The translations under genes were made by a program, and so were the position numbers. DNA of 62,808 nucleotides, counting the filler, from Globobulimina sp. (taxonomy: Eukaryota), in NCBI GenBank assembly GCA_003354225.1. It is 47 parts of 47 records of this genome, joined end to end, with 100 filler letters (N's around TTAATTAATTAA, not from the genome) between each part and the next. Parts side by side here need not be neighbours in the genome. Positions count along the whole stretch, not along the records: positions 38,831 to 40,068 come from PIVH01020342.1; 46 more parts are not named here. One strand, given 5' to 3'. Every line of letters starts with the position of its first letter. Position 1 is the stretch's first letter. The notes beneath the pieces were generated by a model. The model saw only the letters and a program-made list of their open reading frames with translations, was not told the origin of the DNA and made no database searches. This document shows, in pieces, positions 4,898-54,786 of the stretch.

Positions 4898-5359
4898 AGC
4901 AGTTTCTGAAGATAATTTGGAACAAGTTTATAATATATATCTAATTTTAGGTGAATTATGAAATTATGAATGCAGATATATCTGTGATGAGATATAAATC
5001 CAATTCCCTGCATACAGTTAAATCATAGCTGGGTTTGTATACATAGGTAGACCTAATGGCTAATGTATAGCGCTGAATTTGAAATTAAACAAGTTTCAAA
5101 TTTGCTTGTTTGGATAGAATAAAATGCATACCTTTAAAGTTTAAAGCTTTTCATAAAAAGCAATCCATAAAAATGATATGCTTTACAGTTTCTTGACACA
5201 AAATAAGATTGGGTTTCATCAATAATTTTGGCCATATCACCTATACTTCCTTTTGTTTTNNNNNNNNNNNNNNNNNNNNNNNNNNNNNNNNNNNNNNNNN
5301 NNNTTAATTAATTAANNNNNNNNNNNNNNNNNNNNNNNNNNNNNNNNNNNNNNNNNNNN

Positions 5360-6598
5360 GACATCGATTTTACAGAGAATGAGACCAATACGTTCGAGTT
5401 GCGCGACGGCGGGAAAATAAGTTACGGCGATTATTTGAAGAAACAATATGGCATTAAAGTGGCGCGCAAAGAGATGTGCGTCATTAAGGACTTTCGAGGC
5501 AGCGCGTATTTGCCGCAGTTTGCGCATTTGACGTTGCGTAGTGACGAGACGGACGATTTGCATGTGACTGATTTTACCAATCCCGGCATTGGTGAGGAGT
5601 TATTGCGGGTTAATGCTTTGGTGCAACATTTGAATAACACACAAGTTAAGTCACAGTTTGTTTGTTTGCATATTGCAGTGTATCGGAAAAACCGTCTGAT
5701 TTTATTTTATATTCCAGGCCAAAGTGGTGAATAAAAGGAAGAGAGGCAATCGCGGCGATATCGATGATGAGAAAGAAAAAGCAGTGGTGCGGTATGGGTT
5801 GAATATGAATAATAAGCCTATTCGAACGTATTCGGTGATATTGCAATATCCCGATATTAGTATCATGGCATTTGGCAATCGTATCAAAACCACGCCATTG
5901 ACGGAGTTTACATGGGGTGGCCGCGAAGGGACCAAAGGCTTTCTATTGAACGTGAAACCAATCAGGAAATGGATTATTATCGGAAGCAGTCCAAGAATGA
6001 TCGATCGAGTGTTTGAAATCTATCACAAATACACCGGAATGCGCGGCTTTGATGCACAGAATGGACCGTTACAGAGCCCGCAAACGCAAGTGATTGACTT
6101 CAACGATTCAAGCAATTATAAAACGATTGCGAAGGGAAGATGGGAGTTAATATTTGCAATCATTCCCGACAACAAAGCCGGGTCGCAAATAAAGACGTTG
6201 TTTAGTAAACAATTGCAAGGTTTCAAAACCGCGCCGGTTATACAATGCATTAAAGAATCAACGGTGTTTAGCCGGAGCAGCAGGGATAGCATATTGGGTG
6301 CGATTGAACAGTCGATGGGCAAATTCGGCAATGTTTTATACCAAATTACACCCAAATTACAGCCACATTCGCCGTATAAATTGGATAAAATATGGACGAT
6401 TGGCATCGATATCAGTCATAATTTTCCGAATCCCTCTGTTGCTGCGCTGACATTGATAACCATGCCGTTCTATGGCACGCAGCGTGGGTTAAGCACCAAA
6501 ATATGGTTAAACACCCCACGAAAAGACACCATACCATACGCAGCGACGGCAACGTGTACGTATAAGGCATTGAAAGGTGAGATTGAACTAATTAAGAA
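5360..6598 (+). CDS. Divergent Piwi/Argonaute protein fragment (PAZ-L2-MID-start of PIWI)
   Basis: PAZ-like FELRDGGKISYGDYLKKQYGI...YLPQFAHLT; intron 5645-5717 joins in frame; MID-like VIQCIK; PIWI IGIDISH...PSVAA. Confidence 0.85.
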
Positions 6599-12686: not shown

Positions 12687-12756
12687 TCCCACGTAGCTCA
12701 ATTGATAGAGCGCTGCCTTTATGCAGAAGATCCAGGTTCAAATTCTGGCGTGGGAC
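12687..12756 (+). tRNA. tRNA-like element or pseudo-tRNA with shortened anticodon arm
   Basis: Acceptor TCCCACG/CGTGGGA, D arm GCTC/GAGC, T arm CCAGG-TTCAAAT-TCTGG; anticodon arm is only CTGC-CTTTAT-GCAG. Confidence 0.7.
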
Positions 12757-14218: not shown

Positions 14219-14254
<36 letters not shown>

Positions 14255-14398
14255 TTACCGATGGACTTCTCTGTGAGTTTGAGGGACTGGTATATGATTC
14301 GGTTGAGTTCGCTCCCCAATCGACACTATAGAAACTTAAACGAACAGTGGGGTCTAAAGGAAAGAGAAGTCGTAACAAGGCATCAGTAGGTGAACCTG
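14215..14398 (+). rRNA. 18S rRNA 3'-terminal fragment, foraminiferal type
   Basis: CCCTGCCCTTTGTACACACCGCCCGTCGCTCTTACCGATGG...AAAGGAAAGAGAAGTCGTAACAAGGCATCAGTAGGTGAACCTG; terminal GGATCA missing. Confidence 0.95.
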
Positions 14399-14793
14399 GA
14401 ATTTCCTTAAGGTTTTGTATAGGACTTATGACAAAAATTAAAAAATCGTCAAAGTCTTTAACTTTTTTTTTAAGTTGAATAATCGCGGTGCAATTTTTGA
14501 CTGGAAAAATGACACTTTCATCAGGGGATTAACTTGGTTCAAATTTGACTGCTGGTCACGAGGTAAAAAAACATAAAAAAACCTGGTGCATTTTTTGTTG
14601 GAAAATGTTTCTAATTTTACAGTTATACATAANNNNNNNNNNNNNNNNNNNNNNNNNNNNNNNNNNNNNNNNNNNNTTAATTAATTAANNNNNNNNNNNN
14701 NNNNNNNNNNNNNNNNNNNNNNNNNNNNNNNNATAATTGTAAAAAAACTCCAGAGATCAGGGTTTATGGACGCTGTCAATTGCCTTAAATAAA

Positions 14794-27413: not shown

Positions 27414-27478
27414 TGTGATGAGAGCTCAATGAGAGCATCTAATTAAAGGAGATTTGGGTTCAAATCCCATCATCACAT
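27414..27478 (+). tRNA. tRNA-like element with reduced anticodon arm
   Basis: TGTGATGA/TCATCACA terminal stem, GCTC-AATGA-GAGC D arm, TGGG-TTCAAAT-CCCA T arm, followed by a T-run. Confidence 0.55.
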
Positions 27479-38830: not shown

Positions 38831-39319
38831 TCAGGTTTTTTGCCAAAAGTCCAAAAAACAATACAATTTCGACGCATGGAGGTAAAAAAGTTCTTGACAT
38901 ACTAAAATCTTATTAGTATTTCTGTTTAGGAAGTGAACGGATATCACATAAATGTTCTCGATCTTGATACAATGAAAACTTATGTTGATTATGTGCCTCA
39001 GTGTGAAGACCCCACTGTGTCGTCAGAGAAGATATGTACTGAGGGACCATGGCAATTTTTTACACCAAGAGCAAGGGACTGGTTTGTAAACCTGTTTATG
39101 GCAATGCATGTCAAATGTGAGCGTGTCCATAAATTAAAGGTCCCAAATATCATTAATCAATATCTTCGAAATCAACATCCTGGATTCCTGAGTGTGCATC
39201 ACCCCAAATGCACTTACACTTTTGAAGCAGAAGTCGGTGATTTCGATATTACTATAGTTGCAAATACTACTACCCCTGATATTGTTGTACATAAATTTCG
39301 TGTCAGAGCCAGAATGTAA
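38831..39319 (+). CDS. Orphan gene convergent with pPolB, intron-containing
   Basis: Intron 38882-38929 joins FRRME|EVNGYHINV in frame; stop at 39319. Confidence 0.6.
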
Positions 39320-39386
39320 ATGCTTTTATTGTAAACACTTTTTATTGTGAATGTATAAAACTTATAACAAAATCAATCAATTGTTA

Positions 39387-40068
39387 TCATTCTTGCCAAC
39401 CAATGGGTAAACTGGGGTGGTCCACACTTTCTCTCCATAACCGTTTGCTGAATGTAACTTTTAGTCGTTTGTCCATATGTTTTGAGACAATTGTGCCAGT
39501 TTTCTTATACCGTTTCATCAGTCTCTGCGGAACGGTCACAATGTCATTGTCTTTGATCAAAGTAATCAAGGAATGAGCTGTGACTTTTTTGCTGGCTTGC
39601 ACAGTCAAACGAATACCCTTGCATTTGATTATAGTATCAATTTCCTCGCCTAAAAACCATGCATTTATAGTAAAATCACACATCTTTTGTGAATATACTT
39701 GTTCTTTTGTCAGTTATTATCATGGCATAAGTTTTTGGTCCGGCTGCAGCAAATTCAGAAATGATGGCATTCTCTCCATACTTTTTCCCATATTTTTCAA
39801 ATATCTCATCTGTCAACTGACCAAGAAGGGGTCCAGTCACCAAATCCTGCTCTCCCGCTCGTTTAACCCAAACAACTGAATCTGAAAAACCATAAAATAG
39901 TGAAAAAGTCCTAAAGAAGTCTTATGTCTGACCTGTATCAAAATACAAAGTTCTTTTGCCAGTCTTCTCTAACTCATTATACAACTTCAATCTAGCCATG
40001 GCAGTGGTGAATGAAGCATGGACAACTGAAGTTTTTGGGTCGATTTTTTCATATTCCGGCTTGTCCTT
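39387..40068 (-). CDS. Protein-primed family B DNA polymerase (Polinton type), C-terminal part, two introns
   Basis: ASFTTAMARLKLY...LYFDT|DSVV (intron 39882-39932), LGQLTDE, GPKTYA, intron 39650-39698, KCKGI, TFSKR...SLPIGW*. Confidence 0.93.
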
Positions 40069-53548: not shown

Positions 53549-54786
53549 GAACCTGCAAAAATAAAATTGTATATGTCCGATTTTTGGAATGATATTGTCG
53601 CTTTAGGGATTTGGCCTAAATCGGATGATAATATGAAACGACTAGGATTATGTGACATTATAAACGGCACCGATAAATTGGACTTAGAAAACGACATATC
53701 ATCAGCAGAAATGAAACAAGCTTTAGATAAACTGAAAAATAATACCTCATCAGGTACAACAAATATTCCTGCAGAATTTATGAAAAACTGGCCTACTGAA
53801 ATGATAGAAGCAGTACGAATCCTGTTTAATAACTGGTTCAATAGTGGGTTCTTTCCAGATATAGGGAAAACTCAGGAAGTCACATTACTACATAAAAAAG
53901 GATCAAAAAGTAATATAAAGAATTATAGAACACTAAGCCTGGGATGTAACTTATGCAAACTATATTTAATGATATTAACTAAAAGATTAGAATTGATATC
54001 CGAAAAGAAAAATTTACTTGGTTATATACAACACGGGTTCAGATCTAACAAAAGAATTGAGGATTGTATACTTACTATTCAACATACAGTACAAAAAGCA
54101 AAAAAAGGGAATAACTCAGCAACAATTGCCCTATTAGATATATGCAAAGCGTATGATAGAGTATGGAGACAAGGTTTATGGAAAAAACTTAAAGATTTAG
54201 GATTCCCGGATAAATTAATCAATGCAATTAAAAGTAGTTACAATGACCCAGGTGCAACAATAACTTTCCAAAACATAACAACTGAAAAATTATCAATGCC
54301 AGTTGGACTTAGACAAGGATGTACAATGTCACCATATTTATGGGCAATATTTATCTCGGACCTAGGTAAAGAAATTGAAAAATGTAACTATGGAATCAAT
54401 ATTGGAAACACTGAAAACAACAAAATTATATCAGGATTATTCTTTGCTGATGATATGCTCTTATTCGCTAAAAATGAGGAAAATATGGTAAAACTATTAA
54501 AAATAGTAGGGGATTACGCCCAAAAATGGAAAATTGAATTCTCAGGACCAAAAAGTTTAATAATACCCTTGAACAGAGAAACCGACAATGATAAAAAGTG
54601 GAAACTAGGAAAAAAATTCCTGAATGAAACGGACGAGACAGACATATATATTAAGGAAGAAAAAGAAGCAAAATACTTAGGAATAACACTTAGTAACAGC
54701 AATAAAGATATCACGAACCAACACAAATCTAAGTTAGGTGAACAAACAAAAAAAGAAGCATACAGATGTTTCAAACCAGCTCTGGC
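53549..54786 (+). mobile_element. Non-LTR (LINE) reverse transcriptase ORF fragment
   Basis: LHKKG...NYRTLSL, QHGFR, LDICKAYDRV, GLRQGCTMSP, FADD, KYLGI; frame intact. Confidence 0.96.

Follow-up and report, generated by a model that had tools for sequence, protein, structure and literature searches.

Host-style introns probably interrupt a Polinton/Maverick-type DNA polymerase gene in Globobulimina sp.

The window, that is, the whole stretch of DNA analysed here (62,808 nucleotides (nt), filler included), was taken from Globobulimina sp. (GenBank assembly GCA_003354225.1) and consists of 47 unrelated parts of 1,237-1,240 bp, which are sorted by length and separated by spacers of the form N...TTAATTAATTAA...N; adjacency in the window is not adjacency in the genome. 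On one of these parts, the contig PIVH01020342.1, the minus strand encodes the end of a DNA polymerase B of the protein-primed kind (pPolB), and two segments of about 50 nt with the appearance of introns interrupt the coding sequence (Table 1). At 40068 the contig ends within the gene, of which just the last ~193 codons are available; the exonuclease motifs, the polymerase motifs A and B and the TPR1 and TPR2 inserts, which are the mark of protein priming, would lie in the part of the gene beyond that end. Elsewhere in the window no pPolB homology was found, where eight full-length queries matched solely 39414-40065. An earlier reading of this stretch (the original prediction) had proposed that two spliceosomal introns split a pPolB gene and that one of the two interrupts its catalytic motif, DTDS; all of its coordinates and peptide strings are correct when checked on the sequence.

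Table 1. Features of the contig that carries the polymerase gene. Positions count along the window.
Feature	Position	Strand	Description
Contig carrying the polymerase gene	38831-40068		1,238 bp, GC (guanine plus cytosine) 36.8%; artificial spacers on both sides; the sole true genomic context of the gene
pPolB exon 1	40068-39933	minus	KDKPEY...TTAMARLKLY...LYFDT plus a lone G (first base of the codon for the second Asp of motif C); reading ends ...TAMARLKLYNELEKTGKRTLYFDT plus one codon base; 5' side cut by the contig end
Putative intron 1	39932-39882	minus	51 nt, GTCAGA...TTTTTCAG, phase 1, in frame, contains an in-frame TAA, GC 31%
pPolB exon 2	39881-39699	minus	(D)SVVWVKR...LGQLTDEIFEKYG...AAGPKTYA (KxY motif)...DKRT; reading (D)SVVW...LGQLTDE...GPKTYAMIITDKRT
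Putative intron 2	39698-39650	minus	49 nt, GTATAT...TTTTTAG, phase 1, shifts the frame by 1, GC 26.5%
pPolB exon 3 (last)	39649-39390	minus	EEIDTIIKCKGIRL...KVTFSKRLW...SLPIGWQE; reading begins EEIDTIIKCKGI and ends SLPIGWQE
Stop codon TGA	39389-39387	minus	directly after exon 3
Two AATAAA hexamers	39346-39341, 39330-39325	minus	41 and 57 nt beyond the stop, in a spacer of 19% GC
Convergent small open reading frame (ORF)	38972-39319	plus	~115 amino acids (aa), conserved Cys, HHPKCTYTF...AEVGDYDITIVANTT; stop 67 nt from the pPolB stop

Both interrupting segments begin with GT and end with AG, have a T-rich tract before the AG and are poorer in GC (26-31%) than the exons (38-41%), and their removal restores the reading frame as well as the collinearity of the protein with its relatives. 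Exon 2 starts with AT TCA; after the removal of intron 1 the split codon G|AT encodes Asp, and the YFDTDS motif is restored. As the original prediction stated, splicing out the 51-nt and 49-nt segments leaves one open frame. The three joined exons, with X at both split codons, match 20 of 20 homologs with E values from 4e-52 to 2e-16, and against the uninterrupted relatives P0006, P0008 and P0010 both junctions are gapless, with the first X falling on the D of DTDS. Within 24 nt of the intron ends there are six GT..AG combinations, among which the proposed pair alone restores DTDS. No further stop codon or frameshift occurs across the 193 codons. In short, both segments carry every sequence property of short spliceosomal introns, and we consider it very likely that they are true introns. 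Downstream of the gene, the two AATAAA hexamers are weak candidates for polyadenylation (poly(A)) signals, the region being AT-rich. In addition, a tandem acceptor is present at intron 1 (39876-39882, minus strand, ...TTTTTCAG ATTCAG), where the use of the second AG, 6 nt downstream, would keep the frame but would delete the D and the S of DTDS.

That the gene encodes a pPolB is virtually certain. Twenty relatives were retrieved at E<=0.01 from 366 candidates, and 14 of the 20 contain the PF03175 domain. A library of 1.84 billion representatives yielded 604 proteins at E<=1e-3 and 15 at E<=1e-10. Motif C (YxDTDS), whose aspartates we take to be catalytic, is present, since LYFDT, the split D and S align with the invariant D1190, T1191, D1192 and S1193 of the family. 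The KxY motif is present as well, with GPKTYA aligned to the invariant P1236, K1237 and Y1239 of the family alignment. Moreover, the window gene and the full-length relatives have in common a C-terminal LPxG(Y/F/W) ending, and residues 15-45 of exon 1 give a weak match to PHROG 1907 'DNA polymerase' (E 1e-4). The full-length relatives are ~1,250-1,400 aa long; two of them are 90%-identity cluster mates of chromosomal genes of Holothuria leucospilota and Apostichopus japonicus, both sea cucumbers. A profile built from seven relatives of full length is collinear with motifs A, B and C of the phi29 DNA polymerase (PDB 1xhx, E 2e-4), and YFDT|DS of the window gene corresponds to YCDTDS of phi29. 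In contrast, phi29 polymerase is a phage enzyme of 575 aa encoded by an uninterrupted gene, whereas the members of the eukaryotic family are more than twice as long and include a Cys-rich N-terminal part and a Vsr-like insert.

Some details of this family are recorded here in their own right. The ~1,300-aa animal-type pPolBs (P0008, P0013, P0014 and others) have a Cys/His-rich N-terminal part. A stretch resembling the very-short-patch-repair endonuclease Vsr is found at profile positions 789-855 of the alignment A4 (PDB 1vsr, 1odg and 1cw0; E ~1e-3). In P0031 (242 aa), the ~60-aa block from motif C to KxY (VEERAVYVDTDS...GGPKNYAYKYTTLSGEEQI) occurs twice in tandem, an arrangement that came about either by duplication inside a pPolB gene or through an error of assembly.

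Related loci with a wider gene context were then compared with the window gene. The protein P0007, used as a single query against metagenomes, led to the loci L001 and L002. Scans with alignments were unproductive: the C-terminal alignment A1 gave four pattern matches and no relatives in IMG/VR, and the narrow exon 2 alignment A2 gave 595 pattern matches and no relatives in the metagenomes. L001 is a Joint Genome Institute (JGI) metagenome contig of 6.6 kb with 46% GC, and encodes P0007, the closest relative of the window gene (52% identity over 182 tree columns), which is its sister with a Shimodaira-Hasegawa-like approximate likelihood ratio test (SH-aLRT) value of 97. An upstream exon of L001 contains PF03175 (57 bits). 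The polymerase homology in L001 is split into blocks by three canonical introns, GTACGA...TAG (46 nt), GTGAGT...CAG (43 nt) and GTAAGT...CAG (46 nt), and two in-frame insertions are introns as well, GTATGT...ACAG (45 nt) and GTAAGT...TTCAG (57 nt; both of these lengths were read off, the other three computed by script), whose removal restores TTAHARLKLY and LGQLSDEI. None of the five introns lies at a site used in the window gene, and both window sites are uninterrupted in L001; that is, two sisters with 52% identity have no intron position in common. Downstream of the L001 polymerase, on the opposite strand, lies a convergent integrase, which matches the L003 integrase collinearly in three pieces and frames (E 9e-13 and 3e-7), and its pieces give sub-threshold matches to rve (E 2e-4) and to the chromodomain (E 6e-4) in the expected order. 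Judged from its sequence, L001 therefore unites a polymerase and an integrase gene in one module, and each of the two is interrupted.

The locus L003, an IMG/VR contig of 13.3 kb, contains an intronless polymerase of 1,250 aa (PF03175, 171 bits) with an rve integrase (47 bits) directly after it, and also encodes a packaging ATPase, Pox_A32 (43 bits). The scores of all three exceed the Pfam cut-offs. The window exons match the C-terminus of its polymerase with 35% identity over 185 aa (E 9e-22). Consequently, the assignment in the original prediction to the kind of pPolB found in Polintons, Mavericks and adintoviruses holds, given this identity to a polymerase beside an rve integrase and an A32-type ATPase and the PF03175 domain in most of the homologs. 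The prediction had left two alternatives, an intron-rich Polinton-like virus or an element that acquired host-style introns. The latter fits better: the sister in L001 is interrupted by five introns, and these are at wholly different positions. To call the window gene's source intron-rich overall would go further than the two introns show. As a separate observation, the L003 integrase (5232-6367) is distributed over two ORFs with a change of frame near 5720-5735, at an A-rich run, although this Polinton-like contig looks intact otherwise. Candidate explanations are an error in sequencing, a mutation that shifted the frame, and programmed frameshifting.

Then, does the window gene still belong to an element? 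It could be a domesticated host gene instead, that is, a Polinton-derived pPolB that has become an ordinary intron-bearing nuclear gene outside any element. The intact exons, the conserved catalytic residues and the candidate poly(A) signals would suit such a gene, intron gain would be expected of genes with long residence, and the contig displays no element gene, its only other occupant being a small ORF without known family. However, the sister in L001 keeps its polymerase beside an integrase, with both genes interrupted, and the wholly different intron positions in L001, together with many divergent intron-bearing relatives, look more like a diversifying family of elements than like a single conserved host gene. 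We consider domestication unlikely, and we favour, with some reservation, a window copy that is still part of a mobile or viral element. A polymerase of a mitochondrial or cytoplasmic linear plasmid, on the other hand, is hardly conceivable. In its favour are the name of PF03175, 'organellar and viral', and the AT-rich composition of the contig. Against it, the nearest relatives lie on animal chromosomes or in elements linked to an integrase, and introns of the spliceosomal type are unfit for organellar or cytoplasmic expression.

Are such introns confined to the window gene and its sister? Among 168 retrieved relatives (P0006-P0173), examined with a DT-to-DS pattern that allowed any residues in between, an uninterrupted DTD(S/G) is present in 131. 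Ten have an in-frame insertion of 14-23 aa exactly between DT and DS, the site of intron 1 in the window gene, a count that includes only stop-free introns with a length that is a multiple of three, as others are not detectable in this way. The remaining 27 show neither pattern, among them P0121, whose ORF stops 19 aa past DT-GN. Each of the ten insertions has G as its first residue, which a G|GT junction predicts, and S, L or V as its last, whose codons have the form NYA that a ...YAG| end predicts. For the relatives closest to exon 2, P0027, P0045 and P0083 (57-79% identity over the whole alignment and 71-80% over the matched stretches), the match to the family alignment breaks off right behind ...RT-G(T/M), at the site of intron 2. 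In our reading, intron-bearing members are not rare in this polymerase family, and the positions of their introns turn over.

These observations also bear on the possibility that the gene is a decaying pseudogene whose 'introns' are insertions with GT at the start and AG at the end by mere chance. The donor of intron 1 departs from the consensus, and insertions in degraded vertebrate Mavericks are reported as 'introns' by Genewise, according to Barreat and Katzourakis (PMC8097293). Such insertions would not be expected to produce two segments that are both ~50 nt long, with GT..AG ends and a T-rich acceptor tract, and that leave frame and alignment restored with zero gap in 193 otherwise undamaged codons. 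Nor would they account for the G-first and NYA-last signatures that all 10 relatives with an insertion display at DT|DS, or for the five textbook GTAAGT/GTGAGT/GTATGT...YAG introns of the L001 sister, and the pseudogene explanation is very improbable.

The history of the DT|DS site was examined on a tree of 92 rows, each covering at least 150 of the 193 positions, after 77 rows with short coverage had been dropped. The five detectable carriers of an insertion on this tree need five changes, no fewer than with shuffled labels (mean 4.9), and a single shared origin of the DT|DS intron finds no support in this tree, though it is still conceivable. The site reads ...ACAG|AT... in the window gene and ACA GAC in L001, i.e., it has a CAG|A context like that of a proto-splice site. 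The scatter of the carriers over a poorly resolved tree suggests either recurrent gain at a proto-splice site or a high turnover of introns, and repeated gain of an intron at DT|DS is plausible.

Public sequencing runs were also compared with the contig. The run X1, whose kind is unrecorded, contains 46% of the sampled words of the contig, and it yielded six contig pieces, in which both introns are covered, all unspliced and without joints; the runs X2 and X3 yielded no pieces. Within a variant X1 contig of 227 bp, the sequence departs from the window inside intron 1 alone, where 1 nt is missing at 39903 and a different base at 39930 makes the donor GTGAGA. In a coding segment the loss of 1 nt would shift the frame, and the variant provides a small independent hint, from one low-depth contig, that the segment is an intron. 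The same run is relevant to another possibility, namely that the contig comes from a free, non-integrated adintovirus-like genome in the sample, with its genes spliced as in adenovirus. Adenoviruses, which are relatives of Polintons, do use host splicing, the polymerase family includes the contigs L003 and L004, which are classed as viral, and no host flank is demonstrable on the contig. However, L003 and L004 are both intronless, a further copy with slight differences occurs in X1 at a comparably low depth, as would paralogs or alleles in a genome, and the GC content of the contig does not stand out from that of the remaining contigs, which span 26-46% (an AT-rich eukaryote). None of these three points is decisive, and we regard a free virus as quite unlikely.

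The origin of the two introns from introners, i.e., multi-copy mobile introns, was considered and rejected, as no similar copies of them exist within ~58 kb of this genome and the fetched loci. In the ~58 kb of window DNA and in L001 and L002, only chance words of 9-13 nt or one mismatched 15-nt word were found as copies of introns 1 and 2, and the two introns are mutually dissimilar apart from a common acceptor tract of 9 nt.

Based on the anatomy of the gene, its family and its relatives, we conclude that the contig probably carries the 3' end of a nuclear Polinton/Maverick-type pPolB gene with host-style spliceosomal introns of the U2 type (GT-AG). Several points weigh against this conclusion. 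Firstly, the donor of intron 1 is GTCAGA, a weak match to the usual donor consensus, and the only public run that matches the contig holds an unspliced, DNA-like form. A scan of the other contigs for introns gave 203 noisy candidates of 30-150 nt, mostly false positives, so that a length of ~50 nt can only be presumed typical of the host. Secondly, Pfam found no PF03175 in four pieces of the window polymerase (the last ~193 residues) even at E<=10, and the family assignment thus rests on the homologs, most of which contain this domain. Thirdly, neither an integrase, nor capsid genes, nor a packaging ATPase or an adenovirus-type protease, nor terminal repeats are present on the 1,238-bp contig, which is too short to show them or the copy number, and the sole neighbour of the polymerase is an ORF without a known family and without a match in L001. 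Finally, the query used to retrieve the relatives held a read-through intron and may have enriched for relatives with DT|DS insertions, only 13 of the 89 inner branches of the tree are well supported, and the supported branches force just two changes, so a single old DT|DS intron with many losses is possible.

If the conclusion is right, the most likely history is that a Polinton-like element has long resided, in the form of DNA, in a host rich in introns of ~50 nt. Introns that arise in it would be retained, because such elements copy themselves as DNA, and within the family they seemingly arose more than once at the proto-splice-like DT|DS site. Since intron 1 splits the codon of the second catalytic Asp, a functional polymerase would require host splicing; it could be made only from a nuclear transcript that is processed by the host spliceosome and then polyadenylated. 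A bolder version, in which a still-functional Polinton/Maverick-like or adintovirus-like lineage has core replication and integration genes full of very short introns with fast turnover, repeatedly gained in DTDS, is tentative, and we are inclined to doubt it.

How does this compare with known systems? The original prediction noted that the genes of such elements are usually intron-poor, and this agrees with published descriptions, which call the core genes of Polintons and Mavericks intronless in vertebrates, nematodes and protists (PMC8097293; 10.1101/2022.07.12.499685; PMC10120064; PMC9356565). For example, in nematode Mavericks the core genes are 'intronless' and introns occur in cargo genes only (10.1101/2022.07.12.499685). 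Surveys in protists use prokaryote-style or ORF-based gene callers on the ground that endogenous viruses 'do not contain introns' (PMC10120064; PMC9356565). Among the papers that searches on introns in Polintons and Mavericks listed, none mentions introns inside a Polinton polymerase gene in its title or abstract, and supplements and founding papers may contain earlier cases. The window gene and its relatives share with Polintons, Mavericks and adintoviruses the polymerase family, with collinear motif C, KxY and C-terminal regions, and the sister L001 adds the link of the polymerase to a chromodomain-type integrase. The difference lies in the introns, of which two fall within the last 193 codons of the window polymerase and at least five interrupt the L001 gene.

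An exception to the intronless pattern is given by introner insertions in Maverick-Polinton-like proviruses of dinoflagellates (PMC11957031; PMC12166617). The proviruses resemble the present case in being Polinton-like integrated elements with spliceosomal introns that were gained in an intron-active host. They differ in that introners are multi-copy and transposon-derived, whereas the window introns are without copies in the ~58 kb searched. The AT-rich host with ~50-nt introns considered here is, moreover, unlike dinoflagellates. Canonical introns are also known in other DNA transposons, of the cut-and-paste kind, such as Ginger1, an element copied as DNA that can keep 1-4 canonical GT-AG introns in its enzyme gene, which can persist into derived host genes (PMC2836005). 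However, the enzyme of Ginger1 is a DDE transposase and not a self-replicating polymerase, and Ginger1 has no viral module.

As far as can be told from sequence, then, a part of the polymerase family that comprises the window gene, its sister in L001 and at least ten further relatives appears to be interrupted by introns of ~45-57 nt. Such genes appear in databases only as fragments or read-through artefacts. The expectation that ORF-based calling misses them was confirmed, in that prokaryote-style callers fragment them or read through their introns, and many of the database relatives are such fragments. If the element is active, the expression of its own replicase would depend on the host spliceosome, its intron content could be used as a clock of how long it has resided in a host lineage, and the debate on gain at proto-splice sites versus ancestral introns would have a clean case in the repeated DT|DS intron. 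If it is domesticated, the genes would be candidate host genes of viral-polymerase origin. A lineage with fast intron turnover, should it exist, would depend obligately on host splicing. In it, the gain of introns could be followed naturally in a replicon that is copied as DNA and possibly moves horizontally, and screens for viruses and transposons that are based on ORFs would largely miss such elements.

The small ORF that converges on the polymerase gene has two relatives only, P0174 (54% identity in the alignment) and P0175 (51%), both starting at a Met aligned to 38972, and its C-terminus is a few residues longer than theirs. It belongs to no family in Pfam or PHROG, has no usable match in the ESM Atlas and no similarity to L001 or L002, and its AlphaFold model is unusable, with a predicted local distance difference test (pLDDT) score of 38. 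A candidate GT..AG segment of 48 nt lies upstream of it at 38882-38929; because both relatives start at the Met aligned to 38972, this segment is probably not part of the small ORF gene. P0027, the closest relative of exon 2 (79-80% identity), and P0175 are each reported from a European Nucleotide Archive (ENA) contig of 2,443 bp, and they may lie on one contig, in which case polymerase and small ORF would be linked in another organism too. A variant X1 contig lacks 15 nt at 39315, at the extreme end of the small ORF.

The other contigs of the window provide a few further observations. The 3' end of a eukaryotic 18S ribosomal RNA (rRNA) is located at 14240-14402 (plus strand) on a separate contig, and this rRNA piece together with the spacer that follows it could identify the organism. 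Two transfer RNA (tRNA) genes are located on other contigs, at 12687-12756 and 27415-27477, both on the plus strand. Six of the 10 longest ORFs of the window contain eukaryotic domains in Pfam, i.e., RVT_1, WS_DGAT_C, VWA_2, Kelch, Anoctamin and short-chain dehydrogenase. The anoctamin is 69% and 54% identical to its nearest relatives, which bear EukProt codes. An open frame of 412 aa with an RVT_1 reverse transcriptase domain (118 bits), located at 53549-54784 on the plus strand of a separate contig, represents a retroelement.

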